From an uncultured Acidobacteriota bacterium (GTDB lineage: Bacteria > Acidobacteriota > Vicinamibacteria > Vicinamibacterales > UBA2999): 64,000 nt of DNA. Each line of letters starts with the position of its first letter. Positions within the stretch are counted from its first letter, which is position 1. Of this stretch, positions 2,960 to 51,100 are shown in pieces. Location of the stretch: contig CAVTMO010000009.1 of NCBI GenBank assembly GCA_963735875.1, positions 29,592 to 93,591 of the forward strand. Reading direction: 5' to 3'. Both the position numbers and the translations under genes were made by a program. Below the pieces are notes generated by a model. It had not been told where the DNA came from, ran no database searches, and saw only the letters and a program-made list of their open reading frames with translations.

Positions 2960-3656
2960 TCAGCGCAGGGCGCCGAAGTCGAAGGCGGCGGACCCGAGCG
3001 TCCTGGCGCCTTCCTTCACCGTCACGTCGAAGCGGCCAGCGGTCACCGTTCCGGCCTCGAACCGCGCCAGCACCCAGCCGCCGGTCATCGGCTCCTTGGC
3101 GGCGGCGATGACCGTGGACGCCGGCGGGAAGGGCCACCACGGCGCGTCTGGCGGCGAGCGGATTCCAGAACAAGCCGAAGCGAGGGATGCGGTCGGTGGC
3201 GTCGGCGATGAGCGGCATCGCCGTGGCCGGCGAGTCCAGGGGCACCAGCAGCACGTCGATGAGCGGAACGCCGACGTAGGTGTTCTGCGGGTGGAAGCTG
3301 AGCTCCACGATCACCTCGAGCAGCCCCCGCCACGGGTTGAGGTCGCTGGTCATCTGCCGCACGCTGTAGTTGCGGTCGCCGAGCCGGATGTGTTCCTCCG
3401 CACGCAGCACCACGCGGCGATATTCGCTGACGATCGAGATGCGGTTGACCGGCGCGGCGCCGACCGCACGGGCGTAGCGGTCGTGGAACTCCTGGCGCGC
3501 GCCGCGCCCGGCCATGCGCGCAAAGACGATGGCGTCGTCCACGCCCTGGGTCGTGAGGTTGGCCTCGACGGCGCGGGGCCGAGGCGCCAGCGCCGTGACG
3601 ACGGCCAGCGTCACCATCGCCACGCGCAGCATCCCGCCGGCCATCGGACCGAGCAT
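2960..3656 (-). CDS. hypothetical secreted protein, reading frame broken once (~3150)
   Basis: The N-terminal part lies in ORF 2895..3728: signal peptide MLRVAMVTLAVVTALAP, then ...RIPRFGLFWNPLAA. After ~3150 that frame becomes Arg-rich nonsense. An adjacent frame reads DAPWWPFPPASTVIAAAKEPMTGGWVLARFEAGTVTAGRFDVTVKEGARTLGSAAFDFGALR and stops at 2960. This is consistent with one extra G/C. Start codon uncertain (3656/3644/3632). Confidence 0.5.
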
Positions 3657-4495: not shown

Positions 4496-5763
4496 ATGCG
4501 GCGACACCCCGCTCTGATCCGCGCCAGCCTGCTCGCCGCCGCGGTCGTGGCGGTGACCGACTCCCGCGGGGAACCCGATCGCCGCGTCGCCGGCGCAGCC
4601 GCCGGCCGAGGAGTCCGGGACCGCGATCCGCCCCTTCCGCATCGCCGTTCCAGACGCGGTGCTCGCCGACCTCAAGGCTCGTCTCGCCGTCGCCGCGCCT
4701 GATTCGCGCACTGAACGGCGGCGGCTGGCAGCTCGGCACCGACGTCGACTACTTGCGCGATCTGGTCACTTACTGGCGCGATCGTTTCGACTGGCGGGCG
4801 CAGGAGCGGCGGCTGAACGCGATGGAGCAGTTCACGACGACCATCGACGGCCTGCAGGTGCACTTCGTCCACCGGCGGTCGGCGCACGCCGGCGCGTTGC
4901 CGTTGCTCGTCACCCACGGCTGGCCGGGCTCGATTGCCGAGTTCACGAAGATCATCGGGCCGCTCACCGATCCGCCGGCCCACGGCGGCGACCCCGCCGA
5001 CGCCTTCCACGTGGTGATGCCGTCGATCCCCGGGTTCGCCTTCTCGGGCGCGCCGACGGCGCCCGGCTTCGACCCGGCGCGCATCGCGCAGATCGAGGCG
5101 GCGCTCATGGCCCGTCTGGGCTACACGCGCTACGGCGTGCAGGGCGGGGATTGGGGCGCCATCATCGGCACCCAGGTAGCCGCGCGCGACGGCGCCCACG
5201 TCGCGGGGCTCCACCTGAACATGTGCATCGCGCCGGCGCCCGCCAGCGATCCGGAGGCCGGGCTGTCGGCCGCTGAACTGGCCCGGTTGAAGGTGCGGCA
5301 GAACTTCCTGGCCGAGGAAACCGGCTACCAGCAGATCCAGGGCACCAAGCCGCAGACGATCGGGCTCGCTCTCAACGACTCCCCGGTGGCGCTGGCGGCG
5401 TGGATCGTCGAGAAGTTCCGGACGTGGTGCGATTGCGATGGCGATCCCGAAAGGGTGTTCACGAAGGACGAGCTGCTGACCAATATCACCCTCTACTGGG
5501 TGACGCAGACCGCCGGGTCGTCGGCGCGGATCTACTACGAGAACCGCCACCCGACGACGCCAGCAGTGCCGGGCCGGATCGAGACGCCGACTGCCTGCGC
5601 CGACTTCCCGAAGGAGATCATCTGGACGCCACGGCGCTGGCTCGAAGCGCGCTACAACATCACCCGCTGGACGGCGATGCCCAAGGGCGGGCACTTCGCC
5701 GCCCTCGAGCAACCGCAGCTTCTCGTCGACGACGTGCGGGCGTTCTTCCGGACGCTGCGCTGA
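4496..5763 (+). CDS. epoxide hydrolase (EHN + alpha/beta hydrolase), 5' end interrupted by two 1-nt indels
   Basis: 4753..5763 is a clear EH: HGWPGS, GGDWGA nucleophile elbow, C-terminal GGHFAALEQP. The expected N-terminus (..IRPFRIAVPDAVLADLKARLA..) is in frame 0, and a signal peptide (MRRHPALIRASLLAAAVVAVT, ATG 4496) is in a third frame. Shifts are at ~4558 and ~4697. Total length is 3n+2, consistent with two extra bases. Confidence 0.7.
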
Positions 5764-35923: not shown

Positions 35924-37448
35924 ATGCCAAGCCGCTACGCCCGTCGTCGCCTTCGTCCTCGTCCGCGCCGTCGCCGTGATGGTGACCGCGGTCGTCATGA
36001 CCGCCGGCCACCCCGTCCACGCCCAGGACGCCGCGGTCCTCGCCGAGATCGATCGCGGGATGGAGCACTACCGCCTCGACGCCCACATCCCGGGCATGGT
36101 GTGGGGCATCGTGAAGGACGGCCGGCTCGTCCACGTGAAGGGCGTCGGCCTGCAGGACGTCGAGTCGAAGCGTCCGGTCACCGCCGACACCCTCTTCCGC
36201 ATCGCGTCGATGACCAAGGCCTTCACGGCGCTGTCGATCCTCAAGCTGCGCGACGACGGCAAGCTCGTCCTCGACGCGCCGGCCGAGACTTACGTGCCCG
36301 AGCTGCGCGGCTGGCGCCCACCCACCGAGGACTCGCCGAAGATCCGCGTGCGCGAGCTCCTCACCCACACCGCCGGACTGGTCACCGACGATCCGTGGGG
36401 CGACCGGCAGACGCCGCTCCCCGAGGAGGACTTCACGCGGCTGCTGCGCGAGGGCGTCCCGTTCACCAGGCCGACCGCCACGGCGATGGAGTACTCGAAC
36501 CTCGGCTACGCGCTGCTGGGCCGGATCGTCGCCAACGTCTCCGGGCAGCCGTACAAGGACTTCGTCCAGCGCACGCTGCTGACCCCGCTGGGGATGAGCT
36601 CCACCGGCTACGACGTGAGCGCGGCGCCGGCTGAACGCCGCGCCCTCGGCTATCGCTGGGAAGACCATGGCTGGAAGCTCGAACCGACGATGGCGCACGG
36701 CGCCTTCGGCGCGATGGGCGGCATCCAGACGAGCGCCAACGACTACGCGAAGTGGGTCGCCTATCTGCTGTCGGCGTGGCCGGCGCGCGACGGCGCCGAC
36801 AGCGGGCCGGTGCGGCGGTCGAGCGTGCGCGAGCTGGCGCAGGGCGGCAACTACCTGTCGGTGCGGCCGCGGCCGGGCGCCAGCGGCGCCTCGGCGTGCC
36901 GCACCGCCGTCGCCTACGGCATGGGGATGGGCGTCGCCGTCGATTGCGAGCTCGGGCTCACGCTGAGTCACGGCGGCGGCTACCCCGGGTACGGCTCGTT
37001 CGTGCTGCTGCTCCCGGAGTTCGGCGTCGGCATCTTCGCGCTCTCGAATCGCACCTACGCCGGACCACGCCCGCCGGTGTGGGACGCCGCGGTCGCCCTG
37101 TACCAGGCCGGCGAGCTGACGCCGCGGCCCGCCGTGGTGTCGCCGGCACTGGCGACGGCCTATGCGGCCGCCATCCGGATGTTCGAGTCGTCCTCGGTCA
37201 CCGCGTCGTCCGGGACCCTGGCGATGAACTTCCTGATGGATCGCGACGCCGAGCACTGGGCGCGCGACCTGGCCGCGCTCAAGTCTGAAGTCGGGACGTG
37301 CGATACGGCGGCGTCGATCACTGCCACCGGTGCGCTGTCGGGCGAGTTCACCTGGCGGTGCGAGCGGGGACGCGTTCGCGGGACTGTGCTGCTCGCCCCC
37401 ACACGCGCGCCACAGATCCAAGCGCTCAGCTTGGCTCGCATTCAGTGA
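35924..37448 (+). CDS. serine hydrolase / beta-lactamase-family protein (class C-like); probable frame break at ~35941
   Basis: SxxK (SMTK) and YxN (YSN) motifs. ORF 35976..37448 lacks a proper start. ATG 35924 with GGAG 6 nt upstream gives MPSRYA, and deleting one C gives a continuous signal peptide ..VVAFVLVRAVAVMVTAVVMTAGHPVHA. Confidence 0.8.
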
Positions 37449-37460
37449 TGGGTTCACTCA

Positions 37461-37716
37461 ATCTGGTGATCTATTGATGTGGTGATCTAGTGATCGATCT
37501 GGGGATCGGGTGATCTGGTGATCTGGTGATCGATCTGATGATCTGACGGTCGCGTGCTCTCGCACCGCGCAGAGACCCTGACGCTGCCGCCGATGGCGCG
37601 CGGCCGATCACCAGATCTGCAGATCGCCAGATAGATTGCTAGATAGATCACAAGTTCAAGAGATCACCCGATCGACAGATCGATCACCCGATCACCAGAT
37701 CAAGAGATCAAGAGAT
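37461..37716. repeat. GATC-saturated imperfect palindrome built from 8-bp units (ATCTGGTG / CACCAGAT) around a GC-rich core
   Basis: Left arm 37461-37546 has about 10 tandem 8-mers. Right arm 37606-37716 has the reverse-complement units. I count 21 GATC by hand in 37468-37709. Local GC is clearly below the surrounding sequence. Confidence 0.9.
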
Positions 37717-37733
37717 GTGCCACGAACATCTCT
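37711..37733 (-). terminator. candidate stem-loop terminator of the S9 peptidase gene
   Basis: AGAGATGT-GCCACGA-ACATCTCT (8-bp stem) lies 16 nt past the stop. It is followed on the minus strand by the U-containing tract TGATCTCTTGATCT. Confidence 0.35.
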
Positions 37734-37748
37734 ATGCCACTGACATCT

Positions 37749-40166
37749 CTATCTCTGAGCTGTCGATGTCGTGAGCTTCGTCCACTCGTTGGCCCAGTTG
37801 AGCATCTCCGCCACGGTGTGCAGCACCGATTCGCGCGCGGCGTAGCCGTGGGCTTCGTGCGGCAGGGTCACGTAGCGCACCGTCGCGCCGTGGCCCTTCA
37901 GGGCCACGTAGAACCGCTCCGACTGGATCGGGAAGGTGCCGCTGTTGTCGTCGGCCTCGCCGTGGATGAGCAGCACCGGCTCCTTGATGAGGTGCGCGTG
38001 GTTGAAGGGCGACATCCGCGCGTAGATCTGCGGCACCTCCCAGAACGTCCGCTGCTCGTTCTGGAAGCCGAAGGGCGTGAGCGTGCGGTTGTAGGCGCCG
38101 CTCCGGGCGATGCCGGCGCGGAAGAGATCCGAGTGCGCCAGCAGGTTGGCGGTCATGAAGCCGCCGTAGCTGTGGCCGCCGACGATGAGACGCGCCGGGT
38201 CGGCGACGCCCATCGACACCACCTTGTCCACGGCCGCCTTGGCGCTGGCGACGAGCTGCTCGACGTAGGTGTCGTTGGCGGTCTCGCCGGCGCCGACGAT
38301 CGGCATCGACGGGTCGTCGAGGATGGCGTAGCCCTGCGTGAGGAGCAGCAGATGGCTCGGACCGCTCACGCCGGTGAAGCGCTGCGGTGATCCGGTGACC
38401 TGGCCGGCGGCATTGGGATCGACGAACTCGCGCGGATAGGCCCACAGCAGCAACGGCAGCCGGCCCTGCGCCGGCGTCCACCCGGCCGGGGTGTAGAGCG
38501 TGGCCGAGAGCTGCACGCCGTCGGCCCGCGCATACGTGAGGAGCTGCTTCTGCGCGCCCGAGATGAGCGGCGCCGGATCGGTGGACGTCGTCAGCGTCAC
38601 GCGCCGGCCGTCGGCGGTCGAGCGGGCCAGCGTCGCCGGCGGCGTGTTGCGCGTCTCGAAACGGGTGAGCACGCGCGATCCGTCGTCGGACAGGAGGCCG
38701 ACGACGGGCTCGTAGCCCTCGGCCATCTGGTACTTGCGTGTCGGCCGCAGCGTGCCAAGGCTCAGCGTGTCGAGGAACGGCTTGTCGCCCTGCGGCGAGG
38801 CCCCGGCGCCGGCCAGGAAGATGGTGTCGCCGCTCTGCACGATCGACTCGGTGCCCGAGGCCCGGGTGCGCCGCAACGCCGCCCCCGGGTCGCTGTAGCG
38901 ATCCTCGGCGCTCCGGTCCCACAGCTTGCGCGGGGCGGCGCCGGGCTTGTCGAGCACCCAGGTGCGGGTCCAGCGGCGCGTGCGATCGGATTCCGAGTAG
39001 AGCGCCACGCCGGCATCCGTCCAGTTGAGGCCGCTGAAGCGGTACTCCGTGCGCGCCAGCTCGGCGGGCTCGCCCTTGAACGGCGCCGCCAGCGTGCTGA
39101 TTCGATCGCGCTGCGGCACTTGAGCCTTCGGGTTCCCGCCGTCGAGCGCCTCGACCCACGCCAGGGTCGCCGGCTCGAGCGGGTGCCACCGGAAGCTGCG
39201 CGGGCCGGGCAGGACGCCGCCGTTGGGCACGTCGTCGGCCACCGGAAGGGTGGCGATCGTCCGGCTGATCGCACCGACCCGGTCCCACACCTCGACGGTC
39301 TTGGCGAAATCCCCGTACGGCACCAGCCGCGAGAACGGCTTGCTCAGCCGCGTGACCGCCGTGTGCTGGCCGTCGGGCGACGGCAGCACCTGCGTGTGCA
39401 GTCCCGGCCGGCCGAGCGCGGTGCGGGCGCCGGTGGCCGCATTCACCGTCACCAGCTGGCTCGTGGCGTAGTACTCGAAGAGCGCTTCGTCGTGCGCCGA
39501 GGCCAGCAGGTCCTGGTACGTCCGCACCGGCGAGACGCCGCCGCGATGCTCCTGCACGTTGGGGCCGGTGGGCACGGTCGGCAGCGCGGGAGCGGCGCCC
39601 CGTCCGGCCACCGTGGTGGCGCAAAGGAGCGACGCGCCGGTGCCCACCCAGGTGCACGGCGTTGCCAGCACGGCGTTGAGGTCGGTGCCCGGCAGGGCGG
39701 TCGCGCGTCCGGTCGCGCTCTCGCCGACCCACAGCTCGATGCCGGTCGGCCGCGTCTGGGTGAACGCGAAGCGCGCGCCGTCGGCGGAGAAGCCGAGCCA
39801 GGTCAGCGCCGGCGACGGTGGCAGTGTCACCGCCCGCGTGGCGCCGTCGGCCACCGCCTTCAGCACGAGCGCCCGGGCGGCGCGGGCGCGGTGCCGGCCG
39901 TTGCTTGCCGGATCGATGCGCAACCCGGCGAGCCGCAGCATCGGCCGCGACAGCTCGGCGATGGTCGGCATCGCCGCGTGCTCGAGCACGGCCACCACGT
40001 CGCGCGACGGGCTGAGGAACACCTCGGGCGGCGGCGGCTGGTCGAGGATGTCGACGATCACCTTCGGTGGCAGCTGGTAGCCCGGTCCATCCGGGGCCTG
40101 CGCGGCGCTCATCGAGGCGAAACCGCACAGCACGACGACGGCGATCACCGGGCGCAGACTCCGCAT
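37749..40166 (-). CDS. S9-family (prolyl oligopeptidase/DPP-like) serine peptidase with N-terminal beta-propeller
   Basis: ATG 40166 with an AAGGAG RBS. Signal peptide MRSLRPVIAVVVLCGFASMSAAQA. Catalytic triad context GGHSYGG, HGEADDN, EAHGY. Confidence 0.85.
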   Translation of the reverse strand: MRSLRPVIAVVVLCGFASMSAAQAPDGPGYQLPPKVIVDILDQPPPPEVFLSPSRDVVAVLEHAAMPTIAELSRPMLRLAGLRIDPASNGRHRARAARALVLKAVADGATRAVTLPPSPALTWLGFSADGARFAFTQTRPTGIELWVGESATGRATALPGTDLNAVLATPCTWVGTGASLLCATTVAGRGAAPALPTVPTGPNVQEHRGGVSPVRTYQDLLASAHDEALFEYYATSQLVTVNAATGARTALGRPGLHTQVLPSPDGQHTAVTRLSKPFSRLVPYGDFAKTVEVWDRVGAISRTIATLPVADDVPNGGVLPGPRSFRWHPLEPATLAWVEALDGGNPKAQVPQRDRISTLAAPFKGEPAELARTEYRFSGLNWTDAGVALYSESDRTRRWTRTWVLDKPGAAPRKLWDRSAEDRYSDPGAALRRTRASGTESIVQSGDTIFLAGAGASPQGDKPFLDTLSLGTLRPTRKYQMAEGYEPVVGLLSDDGSRVLTRFETRNTPPATLARSTADGRRVTLTTSTDPAPLISGAQKQLLTYARADGVQLSATLYTPAGWTPAQGRLPLLLWAYPREFVDPNAAGQVTGSPQRFTGVSGPSHLLLLTQGYAILDDPSMPIVGAGETANDTYVEQLVASAKAAVDKVVSMGVADPARLIVGGHSYGGFMTANLLAHSDLFRAGIARSGAYNRTLTPFGFQNEQRTFWEVPQIYARMSPFNHAHLIKEPVLLIHGEADDNSGTFPIQSERFYVALKGHGATVRYVTLPHEAHGYAARESVLHTVAEMLNWANEWTKLTTSTAQR

Positions 40167-40242: not shown

Positions 40243-40295
40243 GTAGGGCAGAGCTTCAGCTCTGCCATCTCGGCGGCTCTGAAGAGCCGCCCTAC
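40243..40295. repeat. REPIN-like doublet (two inverted REP hairpins)
   Basis: GTAG-GGCAGAGC-TTCA-GCTCTGCC-ATCTC-GGCGGCTC-TGAA-GAGCCGCC-CTAC. The CTA of CTAC is the GGDEF gene stop codon. Confidence 0.85.
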
Positions 40296-41740: not shown

Positions 41741-44233
41741 TCAGGGCACGAGGGTCAAATTGTGCACCGCCGTGCCCGGCAACAGCGGCACCGGCGTACC
41801 CTCCACCCAGGCCCGCTGCTGATCGCCGAAGTGCGGCGACAACGGGTGGCCGCTCTGGCCGCCGGGCATGTGCAGAATCCCGGTCGCTTCATGGCCGGGC
41901 GACGCCACGAGCCGCTGCGACGCCCCGGTGCGCGGCGTGAGTACGCGCGGCACGTAGGTGTCGCCGGGCAGCGCGTCGCGCGGCATCGACAGGAACCGGG
42001 CCAGCCACGGCACTGCCGCGGCCAGCGGATGCGCGATATCGGCGGCGTTGGCCTCGCCCCACGTCCGTTCGTTCAGGGCGCGCCCGCCCGCGGTCATGGC
42101 CTCGATCGTCCGGTCGATGGCGGCGAGCAGAAACGCGTTCCACGTCGAATACGCCGGGTCGAGCAGGTTGGCGGGGCGTTCGCTGACGAGACGCCAGAGC
42201 GGACCCTCGATCCGCCGGATGGTCGAGTAGTCGAAACCCGGCGCCGCGGCCTTCACGTGCGCCGTCAGGGCGTCGAACGCCATCCGCGATACGGTGAGCC
42301 GGAAAGTGCGCACGAGGCGATACGCCACCGACTCCGCCGCCGCATGACCCGGCCAGGCGCCCTCGACCAGTTGCCGGGCCGCCGCGCGCGCCGGCGATCC
42401 GCGCGCCACATCGGGCGTGAGCGCGTCGAGGAAGACCCCGCGCCAGCGGTTCAGAAACAGGGAGCGGTTGTCGAGCTGGATGTCGAAGAGCGCCCGCTCG
42501 TCGGCGGCGTCGAGCCGCTGCAGGTCGTCGCGGATCATCCAGGCCCGGATGCCGTCGCTGTAGCCGCCGTCGCCGACCCTCCGGAGCATCTCGCCGCCTA
42601 CCACGCGGGCATTGGCCGACCACAGCCGGCCGTCGGGCGGATCGACGACCCGCGGGTGCTCGTCGAAGTCCAGATAGCCGTCCCAGCGATGCGATCCGTC
42701 GGCCCACGACGTGGGCACGCCGCCCCAGCCGCCTTCGGCCGTGCCTGGTCCGGCGACGCCGACGCGCCGGGGGACCGCGCCGTAGATGGTCCAGGCGATA
42801 TGGCCCTCGCGGTCGCCGACGACGAGGTTCTCGGCGGCCAGCGCCGCGCCGACCGACAGGCGCATCGCTTCGTCCACGCTGCGGGCCTCCGCGATCCGCG
42901 CGGCGTCGGTGGCCAGCACGCGCGGGTCGTGGGCCACCCACTTGAGCACCAGCTCGCGGCCGTGGTGATCGCGGGCGACGACCGGCCCCCAGATCGTCCA
43001 GCGCGCCTCGATGGTGACCGGGGCGGCACCCTTCACCGCAATCGACTCGGCGTGCACGTCGAAGCCGCGCGGTCCCTCCGGCGCCTGGTACTTCGTGGGA
43101 TCGCCGGGCACCGGCTCCACGATCACCAGGTCGGACCAGTCGCCGACCGAGTTCGTGAAGCCCCAGGCGATGTCGCCGTTGCTGCCCACCGCCAGCTGGG
43201 GCCCGCCGGGGAGCGTCACGCCGACGAGGCGCCGCGTCTGGCCCGGCGCCCGTTCGTCGGGGTATTCGAACGCCGCCCGGAACCAGATGTTTGGCACCGA
43301 GAGGCGCAGGTGCATGTCGTTGGCGACGATGGCGCTGCCGGTCCGCGACCGCGCGCCCGACACCGCCCAGTTGTTGCTGCCGAGGGTGGCCTCCTCGGCG
43401 CGCGGTAGCCGCGCCCACCAGGGCAGCGACTCGCCGGGCCGCGGATCCGGACCCCGCGACGACGTCTGGCCGGGTGACCGTGGACGAATGGGGCCGAGGT
43501 GATGCTCGCCCCTCCGAATCTCGAACTCCTCGGCCCGCGGAGCCGGCGGAACCGGATGCGGCTCGCCGACGATCGGGCTCTCCCAGTCGCTCGCCCGTCC
43601 AGCCAGGAATTCGAACATCGGCTCCGGCAGCAGGTCGTGCATCGTGCCGAGCGTGTTTTCGTACTCCCACTGCGCGCCTTGCAGCGTGACGAACATGGCA
43701 ATCGCCGTGAGCATCGAGTCTTCGGCGCGCCACTCCTCGGGCGACGTGCGCAGCACCAGGTACTCGAACGGCGGTGCGTCCATCGCCGCCAGCCCGGCGT
43801 TCACGCCCCCGGCATAGGCCTCGAGTTCGGCGCGATAGCCGGGCGGCGAGAACCTGAGCGCCTCGCCTGCGATCGCCCGGAAGCGATGCACCCGCATCGT
43901 GCGGTCGGCGTTCAAGGCGACCGCGCCGACCAGTGCCGACAACTCTCCGGCCGGCTGCCGCCGCTGCAGATCCATCTGGAAGAACCGCTCCTGCGCGTGG
44001 ACGAAGCCGGTCGCCCGCGCCAGATCGAGGCGCGAGCGGGCACGGATCGTCGGCACGCCCAGAGCGTCGCGCGACACCGTCACCGGCTCGGCCAGCCCCG
44101 GGACCTTCAACTGCCCGTCCATCACCGCGAGGCTGCGCCCGAGCACGACCCGCGCGTAGCCGGCGCCGCCGGCGACGATGAGCACCAGCGCGGCGAGGAC
44201 CAGCAGGAAGAAGCGGAGGACGTGGCGCCGCAT
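41741..44233 (-). CDS. penicillin/AHL acylase-family protein (peptidase S45, Ntn hydrolase)
   Basis: 830 aa. N-terminal TM/signal segment and the beta-chain nucleophile context LGSNNWAVSG. Confidence 0.9.
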   Translation of the reverse strand: MRRHVLRFFLLVLAALVLIVAGGAGYARVVLGRSLAVMDGQLKVPGLAEPVTVSRDALGVPTIRARSRLDLARATGFVHAQERFFQMDLQRRQPAGELSALVGAVALNADRTMRVHRFRAIAGEALRFSPPGYRAELEAYAGGVNAGLAAMDAPPFEYLVLRTSPEEWRAEDSMLTAIAMFVTLQGAQWEYENTLGTMHDLLPEPMFEFLAGRASDWESPIVGEPHPVPPAPRAEEFEIRRGEHHLGPIRPRSPGQTSSRGPDPRPGESLPWWARLPRAEEATLGSNNWAVSGARSRTGSAIVANDMHLRLSVPNIWFRAAFEYPDERAPGQTRRLVGVTLPGGPQLAVGSNGDIAWGFTNSVGDWSDLVIVEPVPGDPTKYQAPEGPRGFDVHAESIAVKGAAPVTIEARWTIWGPVVARDHHGRELVLKWVAHDPRVLATDAARIAEARSVDEAMRLSVGAALAAENLVVGDREGHIAWTIYGAVPRRVGVAGPGTAEGGWGGVPTSWADGSHRWDGYLDFDEHPRVVDPPDGRLWSANARVVGGEMLRRVGDGGYSDGIRAWMIRDDLQRLDAADERALFDIQLDNRSLFLNRWRGVFLDALTPDVARGSPARAAARQLVEGAWPGHAAAESVAYRLVRTFRLTVSRMAFDALTAHVKAAAPGFDYSTIRRIEGPLWRLVSERPANLLDPAYSTWNAFLLAAIDRTIEAMTAGGRALNERTWGEANAADIAHPLAAAVPWLARFLSMPRDALPGDTYVPRVLTPRTGASQRLVASPGHEATGILHMPGGQSGHPLSPHFGDQQRAWVEGTPVPLLPGTAVHNLTLVP

Positions 44234-44267
44234 CGGGCTCTGATCCTAGCAGCCCGATGCGACCGGC

Positions 44268-44300
44268 GGGGCTGGGGACTGGGGGCTGGGGACTGGGGCT
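44268..44300 (+). repeat. G-tract repeat arm (GGGGCT/GGGGACT)
   Basis: GGGGCTGGGGACTGGGGGCTGGGGACTGGGGCT, five G4-5 tracts. Confidence 0.8.
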
Positions 44301-44317
44301 CGAGGCGTCTCACGTTC

Positions 44318-44345
44318 GCATCGCCGCAAGCTCTCGCGGCGATGC
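44318..44345. other. perfect 10-bp inverted repeat in the acylase/ada divergent spacer
   Basis: GCATCGCCGC-AAGCTCTC-GCGGCGATGC. Confidence 0.7.
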
Positions 44346-44393
44346 ACAAGCCCGGCTCTTGGAGCGCTTCTCTTGACGCGTGACGACCGCACG

Positions 44394-44426
44394 CCCTAGT
44401 CCCCAGCCCCCAGCCCCAGCCCCCAG
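44394..44426 (-). repeat. C-rich arm, inverted copy of the G-tract repeat
   Basis: CCCTAGTCCCCAGCCCCCAGCCCCAGCCCCCAG, the reverse-complement orientation of 44268-44300. Confidence 0.8.
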
Positions 44427-44481
44427 ATTCGGCGCAAGGCGCGGATCGCGCGCCGAGCCGCGCCGCAGCTACCGTCATGTC

Positions 44482-48107: not shown

Positions 48108-51100
48108 ATGAACGCCCAGCGCTGCTCCGCCCTTCTCATCGCCGTCGCACTGTGCGTCGCCACCGCGCCGCTGTCCTCGCAGGCCCCGGCGCCGGCCAAT
48201 CGGCGCGCCGAGTTCGAACGGCTGGCCAAGGCTGCACTGGCCCAGCATCAGGGCACGCTCATCGTGCGCGGCGTGCGCGAGCCGGTGGAGGTGCTGCGCG
48301 ACCAGCACGGCATTCCGCACATCTACGCGAAGAACACCCACGACCTCTTCTTCGCGCAGGGCTTCACGGTGGCGCAGGACCGGATGTGGCAGCTCGAGCT
48401 GTGGCGCCGGAACGGCGAGGGCAAGCTCGCCGAGGTGCTCGGGCCGAACTACGTCACGCGCGACCGGTTCGCACGGCTGCTCGCCTTCCGCGGCAACTGG
48501 GACGAGGAGATGAAGAAGTACCACCCCGAGGGGCCGGTGATCTTCGACGCCTTTGCCCAGGGCGTGAACATGGCCATCCAGAAGGCCATCGACGAACAGA
48601 AGGTGCCGGTCGAGTTCCGCATCATGGGCTTCCAGCCCCTGCCGCACTGGACCGCCAAGACGCTCCTCACGCGCATGCCCGGCTGGACGCTGTCGCGCAA
48701 CGTAGCCGGCGAGGTGCAGCGCGCGCTCGACGTGAAGACGCTGGGTCTGGAGAAGACGCGCGAGCTGAAACCCACCGACCCCGAGACGCCGTTCGTCGTG
48801 CCGCCCGGGCTGGATCTCGAGGACATCACCGCTGACATCCTCGCCATCACGCGGGGCGCGAACGATATCCGTTGGGATCTGACTCCGGCGGAGCTGAGGG
48901 CGGAAGCTCTGACAAGCCCCAGTCCCCAGTCCCCAGCCCCCAGCCCCGAGAGGGACTACACGCAAGGTTTTGGTAGCAACAACTGGGTGATCAGCGGGAA
49001 GAAGTCGGCCACCGGGATGCCGATCATCGCCAACGATCCGCATCGCGAAGTCGTGAATCCGGCGCTGCGCTACGTCGTCCATCTGAACGCGCCGGGCTGG
49101 AATGCCATCGGCGCCACCGAGCCCGGGTTGCCCGGCATCTCGATCGGCCACAACGATCGGGTGGCGTGGGGCTTCACCATCCTCGGCATGGATCAGCAGG
49201 ATCTCTACGTCGAGGAGACCGATCCGGCCAACCCCAAGCGCTATCGCTGGAAAGGCGCCTGGGAGGACATGAGCGTCGAGCGCGAGTTCATCTGGGTGAA
49301 AGGACGGCCCCAGCCCGACGCGGTCGATCTGTCGTTCACGCGGCACGGACCGGTGCTCCACGAGAACACCGGCCGCAACCGTGCCTACGCGTTGAAGTGG
49401 GTGGGCGCCGAGCCCGGCGGCGCCGGATATCTCGGCTCGCTGAACGTGATGCAGGCGAAGAACCTCGACGAGTTCCGCGCCGCCCTGCCCAAGGCGTGGT
49501 ACCTGCCGTCGCACTCGCTGGTCTACGCCGACGTCGAGGGCACCATCGCCTACTTCGGCGTGGCGCTCACGCCGCAGCGCAAGAACTGGGACGGGCTGCT
49601 GCCGGTGCCCGGCAAGGACGGCCAGTACGAATGGGACGGCTTCGTGCCCTTTGAGCAGTTGCCGTTCAGCCGGAACGACCCGCGCGGGTTCTACAACAGC
49701 TCGAACAACGACGTCGTGCCGAAGATCGTCCCCGGCTACAAGATCCCGCTCGGCTACGAGTACAGCGCGCCCTACCGCTACGAGCGGGCGTTCGAGGTGC
49801 TCAGCCAGGCGAAGACCTTCGCGCTGACCGACATGGAGAAGCTGCAGCAGGACGCCACGTCGCTGCCGGCGCGGGCGCTCGTGCCGCTGCTTCGCCAGGT
49901 GCGCGGGCCCTCGCGGGCGCGGCCGACCACCACGACGGCGCCAGGCGGCGCCGCGCGCAGTGTTGATTTCGCCGCGACGCAGGGTTCGAGCCCTGGCCCG
50001 TCCAGCGACACGCTTCGGGCGATCGATCAACTGCTGGCCTGGAACCACGTGCTCGACAAAACCTCCACCGCCGCGACGATCTACGAGTACTGGCTCCTGC
50101 GGCTGCAGCCGCTGGCGTATGCGCCGCGGGTGCCCGAGGCGCAGCGGGCCGCGTTCCGCGCCTTCGATCCCCGCCGCGTGATCGCGTGGATGACCCGTCC
50201 TGACGCCGCTTACGGCGCCTCGCGGCGCGAACGCGAGGCCACGCGCAACCGCATCCTGCTCGAGGCGATGGATCAGGCAGTGGCCGACCTCCGCAAGGCG
50301 CACGGCGAGAAATGGGCCGACGTCCCCTGGGGGCAGATCCACACCTCGCGCTTCACCCACCCGCTGGCCAATTCGGCCGCCACGCGCGAGCTCTTCGCCA
50401 TGCCGGCGGTTCCCAAGAGCGGCGACGCCTACACGCTGCTGGCCAGCTCGTCGGCCACCGAGGCCGGCGCCGACCAGACCTCCGGCGCCTCCTACTCGTT
50501 CGTCTTCGACGTGAAGGACTGGGACAACTCCACCGGGTTGAACGCGCCGGGCCAGTCGGCACAGCCGCTCAGCCCGCATTACGGCGACCTGGCGCCGCTG
50601 TGGGGCGAGGGCAAGGGCGTGCCGATGGCGTTCTCGCGCGCCAAGGTCGACAGCGTCGTCAAGTCGCGCCTCGTGCTCCAGCCGCTCACCGAGCACCTGC
50701 CAGCGGCGGCGGCGCCCTCACCGGGCCTGCCGGGGTTCGAGCCGCTGCAGCCCGCAACCTTCGCCGCCCACGGCGCCCAGGCCAACGCCTGGGGCGATTA
50801 CGACGGCGACGGCGACCTGGACCTCTTCGTGGGGTTCCGCGGCCGTCTCGACCGGCTCTATCGCAACGACGCCGGCACTTTCACCGATGTCGCGTTGGCG
50901 ATGGGCCTTGGCGACACGAGCGAGACGCGGGCCGCCGCCTGGGGCGACTACGACAACGACGGCGACCTCGACCTCTACGTCGGCTTCTCGGTGAACCAGA
51001 CCACGCCGAACAAGCTCTATCGCAACGACGGCGCCAAGGGCTTCGTGAACGTGGCCGGCGCGCTCGGCGTGGAAGACACCGGCACCACCCGCCAGCCGGC

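Follow-up and report, generated by a model that had tools for sequence, protein, structure and literature searches.

The GGGAATC heptamer repeats of Xanthomonas and the GGGGA(C/T)T heptamer repeats of Nostoc have been described with a stress on G-quadruplex formation (Rehm et al., 2015, PMC4692102). Each of the two strains of Xanthomonas analysed has 183–186 heptamer loci in its genome, and 89–93% of them are intergenic (PMC4692102). Repeats of this GGGNATC type consist of a 7-nt unit in 2 to 26 copies with a mode of four units, lie at a mean distance of 28 nt from the upstream open reading frame (ORF), prefer the sense strand within 50 bp of a stop codon, form 70–75 convergent pairs, differ in length between Xcc and Xac and are transcribed, and their function was not identified (PMC4692102). 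Another group, the TAACTGA intergenic heptamer direct repeats, is found in Beggiatoaceae and in some cyanobacteria and Bacteroidetes, and a post-transcriptional role has been proposed for it (MacGregor, 2015, PMC4679880). Here we describe a GATC-rich palindrome built of 8-nt tandem units, located at positions 37461–37716 of a 64,000-nt stretch of DNA from an uncultured Vicinamibacterales bacterium of the phylum Acidobacteriota (assembly GCA_963735875.1, contig CAVTMO010000009.1, positions 29,592 to 93,591). This whole stretch is called the window below, and its coordinates are used throughout. Acidobacteriota are among the most abundant bacteria in soil, and little is known on their gene ends and intergenic organisation.

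The palindrome is a convergent pair of 8-nt arrays that extends this known kind of repeat to Acidobacteriota, apart from the G-quadruplex property. As in the GGGNATC repeats and the cyanobacterial heptamers, which were reportedly given the name STRR (short tandemly repeated repetitive sequences) by Mazel and colleagues in 1990, the units run head to tail and the arrays are spread chromosome-wide and overwhelmingly intergenic, with several loci per metagenome-assembled genome (MAG). They lie near the upstream ORF, with the G-rich strand being the sense strand near the stop codon, and many of them form convergent inverted pairs able to fold into stem-loops. Copy number and sequence vary among close relatives, and the flanking genes have no common function. 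The window also has 7-nt arrays of its own with CCCCAGT and CCCCAGC units, which are of this very type, CCCCAGT being the cyanobacterial STRR1 heptamer. The present element differs in its 8-nt unit with a GATC core, its occasional 4-nt half units and its 36-nt super-period, in being much longer than the four-unit mode (21 units and a core over ~250 nt), and in its host, which belongs to a phylum not mentioned in PMC4692102. It also differs in that the arms lack the G3 tract per unit needed for a G-quadruplex: a G-tract of three or more is found in 2 of ~12 left-arm units (atctGGGG and atcGGGtg), and the TGGT spacer of the window has no G3, while the tract is present in the Terriglobia variant GGGTGATC, and GGGT, the commonest acidobacterial spacer (100 of 267 among the matches listed), qualifies as well. 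Since the same position, polarity and pairing are found here without G-quadruplex potential, the G-quadruplex explanation is weakened for the whole class, and the common property pointed to is a G-rich strand in transcript sense together with convergent pairs. The TAACTGA repeats resemble the present arrays in the lineage-restricted over-use of one short intergenic direct-repeat unit at many loci per genome, but they are AT-rich, lie mostly just upstream of starts and are almost never inverted (1 of 170 sets is indirect).

Anatomy of the palindrome and its change among relatives

The element occupies most of the 300-nt gap between two convergent genes, and its features are as follows.

35976..37448, + strand: upstream convergent gene, beta-lactamase family, 490 aa (PF00144, E 8e-70)
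37461..37546, + strand: left arm, ~11 units of 8 nt (ATCTGGTG, i.e. NGGTGATC) and two 4-nt half units (ATCG); 10 GATC; G-rich on the + strand, in the same sense as the mRNA of the beta-lactamase-family gene
37547..37605, no strand: core, 59 nt, GC-rich, unique; missing from the short allele of the nearest relative, locus L001
37606..37716, - strand: right arm, the unit reverse-complemented on the + strand (GATCACCA, GATCACCC, GATCAAGA); 11 GATC; G-rich on the - strand, in the same sense as the mRNA of the S9 peptidase gene
37718..37751, no strand: 17-nt direct duplication (TGCCACGAACATCTCTA / TGCCACTGACATCTCTA), overlapping the S9 peptidase stop codon
37749..40166, - strand: downstream convergent gene, S9 family serine peptidase (PF00326)
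44268-44298 / 44401-44426: 7-nt inverted pair elsewhere in the window (GGGGCTG/GGGACTG ... CCCCAGC) with a ~100-nt core

The first repeat unit begins 12 nt after the TGA stop of the beta-lactamase-family gene and the last one lies 32 nt from the S9 peptidase stop, and the G-rich strand of each adjoining arm is the sense of the incoming mRNA, both G-rich strands pointing 5'->3' at the middle of the pair. A first-pass annotation of the window, made from the letters alone, had reported 21 GATC tetramers in 37468–37709 where fewer than one would be expected, an 8-nt periodicity with a reverse-complemented right arm, and a GC-rich core of about 60 nt set in a region of lowered GC content, and these statements were all confirmed. 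Exactly 21 GATC are counted (first at 37468, last at 37706) against 0.98 expected from the base composition of the region and ~1.8 from the window-wide density (467 in 64 kb), and the densest other 300-nt stretch in the 64 kb holds at most 8. Their successive spacings are 16, 8, 4, 8, 8, 8, 8, 4 and 8, then 66 across the core, then 8, 8, 24, 16, 8, 8, 4, 8, 8 and 8; the extreme density arises because GATC belongs to the repeated unit. Tandem Repeats Finder (TRF) describes 37461–37531 as a period-8 array of 9.4 copies with the consensus ATCTGGTG, finds a higher-order period of 36 nt over 37461–37544 that equals four units plus an ATCG half unit, and reports 37606–37716 as period-8 arrays of the reverse-complement unit. 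The best pair in an inverted-repeat search is 37461–37536 / 37641–37716, 76 nt long and 83% complementary, and the right arm is degenerate at its middle (37630–37660). The GC fraction is 0.48–0.52 in the arms and 0.63–0.64 in the core. The claim that nothing similar exists elsewhere in the window needs to be divided. It stands for the GATC unit, which forms no other array there: the 20-mer GATCTGGTGATCTGGTGATC, allowing up to 3 mismatches, occurs 9 times in the window, every time within the element, where 0 are expected. It does not stand for the architecture, as analogous 7-nt arrays are present, including the inverted pair 44268–44298 / 44401–44426. A search of Rfam over 36900–38300, with E up to 10, returned chance-level matches only.

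The nearest relative is L001, which comes from an independent soil sample and has an S9 protein 94% identical to that of the window. The same two genes are found there 97 nt apart, with the beta-lactamase-family orthologue adjoining a GATC palindrome of ~60–70 nt that comprises 2 x 3.5 such units and lacks the GC-rich core. The last ~35 nt of the right arm and the adjoining flank are ~90% identical between the two, and the 17-nt duplication at 37718–37751 is single-copy in L001. In the more distant L002, L003, L059 and L060 other genes occupy this position and there is no array; likewise, 80 loci from metagenomes that contain this S9 gene have no array at the site, and the closest of them (92–95% identical) have a different gene downstream of S9. 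A sister site lies at the other end of the S9 gene. Two samples with identical S9 proteins, L060 and L061, have a long direct TGGTGATC/GGGTGATC array between the GGDEF and S9 genes, and the array of L061 exceeds that of L060 by one 36-nt block; at this place L001 has a shorter array (3229–3307) and the window none. Directly downstream of the DAO gene there are GATC-period-8 arrays in L003 (3315–3388) and L002 (3428–3447) and none in the window. In L001 3229–3307 and L003 3315–3388 the GATC is kept and the four bases between successive GATCs vary. These comparisons show that the arrays change copy number between close relatives in units or in 36-nt blocks, which agrees with the earlier suggestion of a slippage-prone variable-number tandem repeat (VNTR), as seen at the same site between the window and L001 and at the sister site between L060 and L061. 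From the alignment with L001, the element is apparently a homologous expandable site rather than an insertion. Their hypervariability makes such arrays markers for typing strains in soil metagenomes, and they are a likely cause of contig breaks.

The terminal 20-mer of the right arm, GATCAAGAGATCAAGAGATG, recurs in the array of L156. This was considered as an orthologous site on account of the common end and was rejected, since neither flanking protein gave a tblastn match there. Upstream of the S9 gene a conserved CGCGCTACAATC motif, with TACAAT as a likely -10 box, is seen in L001 (3320–3335), in L059 (1385–1400 region) and in L060 (3975–3990). The long direct array of L060 and L061 ends ~30 nt upstream of this putative S9 promoter, and copy-number change there could therefore affect the promoter. 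Simple sequence repeats of phase variation switch expression by their copy number from within a promoter or the 5' coding region; the palindrome of the window sits instead at the 3' ends of both genes.

A dispersed family with a preferred place and polarity

One reference genome per species was scanned with three consecutive copies of the unit, (GTGATCNN)x3, i.e. GTGATCNNGTGATCNNGTGATC, and at least 120 loci were obtained, of which at least 71 belong to Acidobacteriota by record title, often several in one MAG. Acidobacteriota make up a few per cent of the species in the scanned collection by a rough estimate. Among the matches listed, the acidobacterial groups are Ca. Angelobacter/Terriglobales, Terriglobia, Vicinamibacterales, Thermoanaerobaculia and Solibacter. 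Similar arrays are sparser in Bacteroidota, Actinomycetota and a few other groups, and they also occur on some viral contigs. The spacers between GATCs (n=267 among the matches listed) are led by GGGT (100), TGGT (61) and CGGT (22), and the variable base N of the unit is G 137, T 90, C 28 and A 12 times in the same set. A G stands directly before GTGATC in 63 of the 71 acidobacterial loci, and GG stands before it in 29 of the 49 non-acidobacterial ones against 25% expected, again among the matches listed. Vicinamibacterales-like contigs have a low density, with 2 further GATC-unit arrays in 390 kb, and the window holds one locus. Arrays of NGGTGATC (GATCACCN on the other strand) thus form a dispersed family which is abundant in Acidobacteriota and located at many unrelated intergenic sites. 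In the searchable literature no paper with even a dimer of the NGGTGATC unit was found.

Most arrays are intergenic by approximate gene calls, which came from a home-made, self-trained predictor. Their position was examined by a symmetric test, applied alike to each orientation, which looks for the end of a coding-like ORF in the 50 nt upstream of an array. Such an end is found for 29 arrays when they are read in the G-rich sense as compared with 6 when read in the C-rich sense (4 more count in both orientations), and with the crude gene calls an ORF end near the array is found for 27 and 8, respectively. A separate pair survey used no gene calls and covered 1.4 Mb for inverted pairs of short arrays with periods of 7, 8, 10 and 11 lying at most 250 nt apart. 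It gave 61 inverted pairs, 58 of them informative in skew, and the G-rich arm comes first in 50 and second in 8; the palindrome of the window is a typical G-arm-first pair. The arrays hence show a tendency to begin no more than 50 nt past a stop codon and to have their G-rich strand in mRNA sense, and they often occur as G-arm-first inverted pairs.

Arrays of the GATC unit belong to a wider class of 7–11-nt arrays that have unrelated units and a common anatomy. An unbiased TRF census over 532 kb of Vicinamibacterales-like DNA returned 67 short arrays with many different units, mainly of period 7 (38), 9 (12), 8 (6) and 11 (6), and several of them are inverted pairs around a 55–110-nt core. The 7-nt pair of the window at 44268–44298 / 44401–44426 sits in the divergent region between a penicillin amidase gene and the Ada gene, and paired arrays persist at this site in the window (44233–44440), L002 (5892–6016), L003 (5847–5978) and L059 (1287–1438). 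Four variable bases of the heptamer are lineage-specific there and altered in both arms together (GGGGCTG, GGGACCA, GGGTCTC), and a ~24-nt block of the core (AGCGTCAGTTCCGTCGG[A/T]GGTTCT, one mismatch) is oppositely oriented in L002 and L003. This joint alteration and the reversed block indicate that the arms co-evolve and that the core has flipped.

Some further observations concern particular members. The GGTGATC arrays of Ca. Angelobacter and further Terriglobia (L092, L128, L158, L122, L173; L154, L160, L116, L161) lie in mosaics with other recurring modules such as CACGGAGGCACAGAGACACGGAGAAG and AATCAGTGTCATCAGTGTTAATCAGTGGTAAG, and the Terriglobales GGTGATC arrays include a conserved irregular unit, GATC-GCGCGT-GATC. 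Four related viral contigs (L014, L015, L044, L046) have (GATCAGAG)n at the same place in 4 versus 9 copies, so that an 8-mer containing GATC varies in copy number here in phage-like DNA. The first ~100 nt past the S9 stop hold heptamer arrays in different lineages (L219 3858, L239 3877, L233 1157, L251 1190, L204 3819/3931), with the units AGGCAGG, GGTTCCT, GGTTCGT, GGCTTGG and TAAGAAC, mostly G/T-rich on the sense strand; their position is conserved and their unit is not. Palindromic or tandem arrays of 9-nt units (GTGCCAAGA ... CTTGGCACC; GGCACCCCT) occur directly after stops on Vicinamibacterales contigs, in L190 (3865–3950) and in L137 (~4840–4908), and the array of L137 directly adjoins a GATCACGA array.

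Predicted transcript-end hairpins and competing readings

The first-pass annotation had listed a very long bidirectional hairpin among its options, and this is what folding predicts. The long allele of the window folds into one long hairpin on either strand (-162.3 kcal/mol, z -9.9, and -153.9 kcal/mol, z -8.6), and the short allele of L001 folds at -50.8 kcal/mol (z -6.7) on one strand and -48.6 kcal/mol on the other. Inspection of L001 by eye, with no terminator scan run there, gave no other candidate terminator between the two genes. The element resembles factor-independent bidirectional terminators and repetitive extragenic palindromes (REP) in being a palindrome between convergent genes with a predicted fold in both transcripts, and the short L001 allele has the size of an ordinary terminator stem. 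It is unlike them in having no U-tract and in its tandem-unit arms, which are about five to ten times longer than typical stems, and the GTAG or CGTC tags of REP are absent.

The reading we prefer, with roughly an even chance in our judgement of being right, is that the convergent array pair gives a long hairpin where both transcripts end, with the role of a terminator or 3'-end protector, that its length is set by slippage and arm-to-arm recombination, and that the GATC density is a by-product. Each convergent transcript would enter its G-rich arm first, this arm would pair with the C-rich arm to give a ~100-bp imperfect hairpin in each transcript, and the hairpin would serve as a bidirectional transcript-end element of the U-tract-less type, either stopping read-through or protecting the 3' ends. 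The one other gene end inspected in the window (40268–40292) likewise has hairpins that lack a T-run. The arms would lengthen and shorten via slipped-strand mispairing, and the pair could recombine arm against arm. What is observed is that the element belongs to the family, behaves as a VNTR, has this position and polarity and is able to fold; any effect on the transcripts we infer.

Several points weigh against this reading. A role in termination or stabilisation is purely conjectural. Neither arm is followed by a T-run, and a consensus scan for canonical terminators gives 0 sites in 36500–38700. A palindrome of 250 nt far exceeds the needs of a terminator, and because the short L001 allele would suffice for this purpose, the expansion itself may be neutral. 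A generic hairpin function also leaves the recurrence of one unit across a phylum unexplained. As for the polarity, it is statistical only: tandem gene contexts split about 19:15 as tallied by hand, and L209 and L212 have C-sense arrays directly after a stop. The stop-codon test moreover relies on the gene calls of the home-made predictor, and its ORF-end count is inflated by TGA occurring in all three frames over 24 nt of G-sense units, though after removal of the 8 arrays that supply the stop themselves the ratio is still 25 vs 9.

It is possible, if somewhat doubtful to us, that the arrays are a neutral or mildly selfish by-product of mutation, in which slippage and arm-to-arm template switching expand seeds in the weakly constrained DNA after genes. 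Such an origin would suit the fast turnover of the locus (an array in the window, a short one in L001, none at the site in L002, L003, L059, L060 and the 80 metagenome loci), the 36-nt indel between L060 and L061 and the diversity of units within one lineage (67 arrays in 532 kb, with periods 7, 9, 8 and 11), and the study of the most similar class described identified no function (PMC4692102). Neutral slippage, however, does not predict that the G-rich arm comes first (50:8), that the G-rich strand near stops is biased to mRNA sense, or that GGTGATC recurs across the classes of a phylum (the 63 of 71 acidobacterial loci given above), and at the Ada/amidase site paired arrays persist in four relatives while the unit changes jointly in both arms. 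A bolder proposal, which we consider unlikely, takes the NGGTGATC arrays as a phylum-wide polar gene-end signal read in transcript sense, with convergent pairs serving as bidirectional barriers whose arms co-evolve and whose core occasionally flips. Possible readers of such a signal are the 16S rRNA tail GAUCACC pairing with GGUGAUC, a dedicated G-strand or RNA-binding protein, or an R-loop on the G-rich non-template strand; if true, this would be a new class of sequence-specific element marking the end of transcripts or translation in Acidobacteriota, and not a generic hairpin. The ribosomal version in particular appears very improbable. GGUGAUC is exactly complementary to GAUCACC, the conserved 3' tail of 16S rRNA just 5' of the anti-Shine-Dalgarno CCUCC, and pairing would hold terminating 30S or 70S particles after stops. 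This agrees with the bias to G-sense and with how close the arrays lie to stop codons, with the arrays of the viral contig L018/L056 at ~10 nt (TAA GCGGAGAA GATC) and ~2 nt past stops, and with the excess of GG before GTGATC in non-acidobacterial loci. An extended 16S pairing was nevertheless rejected, as the base that would extend it, A, is the rarest at the variable position (12 among the matches listed); conservation is higher for GATC than for GG, some arrays after stops are C-sense, and sister arrays with no complementarity to 16S rRNA have the same position and polarity (see also PMC4692102).

The first-pass annotation had proposed an array of sites for a GATC-reading or methylation-dependent protein and, as another option, an iteron or centromere-like site of the parC type, and a binding-site array in this wide sense (Dam/SeqA-like, or for a cooperative dimeric binder with an 8-bp step, in a nucleoid, centromere-like or regulatory site) is in our view improbable. 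There are known models for it: MetJ binds 8-bp met boxes cooperatively, omega and ParR-type ribbon-helix-helix proteins bind 7-bp ATCAC heptads, and plasmid centromeres such as R1 parC and the omega heptads WATCACW of pSM19035 are made of short iterated units. Dam and SeqA read GATC clusters at oriC and the dnaA promoter, and the HIP1 octamer GCGATCGC is a GATC-centred word that is hyper-abundant in cyanobacteria. The element shares with them short direct and inverted repeat blocks, an ATCAC core as in the omega heptads, a 7–11 bp period that would fit cooperative binding, and a high local density of GATC; within the unit it is GATC that varies least (L001 3229–3307, L003 3315–3388), this palindromic 4-bp core recurs with a fixed period of 8 bp, and one unit is specific to a phylum. 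Against this, the site is chromosomal and at gene 3' ends, with arrays scattered many times per genome, and BLAST against 72,556 plasmids and against phages gave no match, to which the low-complexity filter may contribute. Among the 22 predicted genes scanned (24.2–56.5 kb) there is no Dam-type methyltransferase, recombinase, partition or replication gene, and no small DNA-binding gene adjoins the element. Strict 8-bp tandem arrays differ from the dispersed single sites of Dam/SeqA clusters and HIP1, there are no origin features, GGTGATC is not over-represented outside the arrays, and GATC in the rest of the window is neither avoided nor enriched. The 8-bp spacing places successive GATC sites on different faces of the helix, ~86 degrees apart, whereas SeqA uses helically phased GATC on the same face. 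An orientation relative to transcription is unexpected for a palindromic DNA site, and sister arrays with unrelated 7–11-nt units share the position, pairing and polarity, which favours a cause independent of the unit. GATC-rich palindromes of this kind should not be taken as origins, centromeres or methylation switches without further evidence. We give very little credence to an invertible or recombinogenic segment whose arms flip the core, as in an inverton, or drive hairpin deletion and expansion. The reversed ~24-nt block in the Ada/penicillin-amidase pair and the absence of the core from L001, as expected after arm recombination or deletion, would speak for it, but no recombinase gene lies nearby, the core has no promoter-like (sigma-70-like) site, and there would be little use for a switchable promoter where both genes end. 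The core was sought in sequencing runs to compare orientations and no run with it was found, and the sole opposite-strand contig joint is explained by the arms matching each other. Scarcely credible, finally, is a non-autonomous insertion like a miniature inverted-repeat transposable element (MITE), which the first-pass annotation had also listed, or an assembly artefact of palindromic repeats, for all that terminal inverted repeats surround a unique core, the GC content is unlike that of the flanks and the source is a metagenome assembly. No second copy of the core or flanks exists in 1.4 Mb of related loci, inspection by eye shows no target-site duplication where the array ends (no dedicated search was made), and an independent sample (L001) has a shorter homologous palindrome at the identical site. 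The junctions are also present in contigs of other runs, according to a comparison with Logan contigs from related soil runs: a 151-nt contig of run X2 equals 37340–37490 with zero mismatches at the left junction, and a related-strain contig of run X5 spans 37668–37947 at the right one, each being thin support. One run contains the same strain at a depth of ~2x, and matches to the array segment fall on many unrelated contigs.

The rest of the window

The neighbourhood consists of ordinary chromosomal genes, namely purE/purK-like, beta-lactamase-family, S9 peptidase, GGDEF sensor, penicillin amidase, Ada and M16 peptidase genes. An exact-sequence database lookup of the beta-lactamase-family protein gave no record. 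The start of the S9 peptidase was set by the 805-aa database protein P0001, the longest ORF extending to 40268, and the homologues of this protein are annotated as Vicinamibacterales (Acidobacteriota) from soil. Outside the element GATC occurs at 0.92 of its expected frequency, and restriction avoidance of GATC was accordingly rejected. A genome-wide signal similar to DNA uptake sequences (DUS), Chi or FtsK-orienting polar sequences (KOPS) was rejected as well, as the rest of the window has 16 GGTGATC and 20 GATCACC where 10–22 are expected. Further 7-nt arrays with GGGGCTG/GGGACTG and CCCCAGC/CCCCAGT units lie at 2895–2929, 48917–48947 and 797–814.

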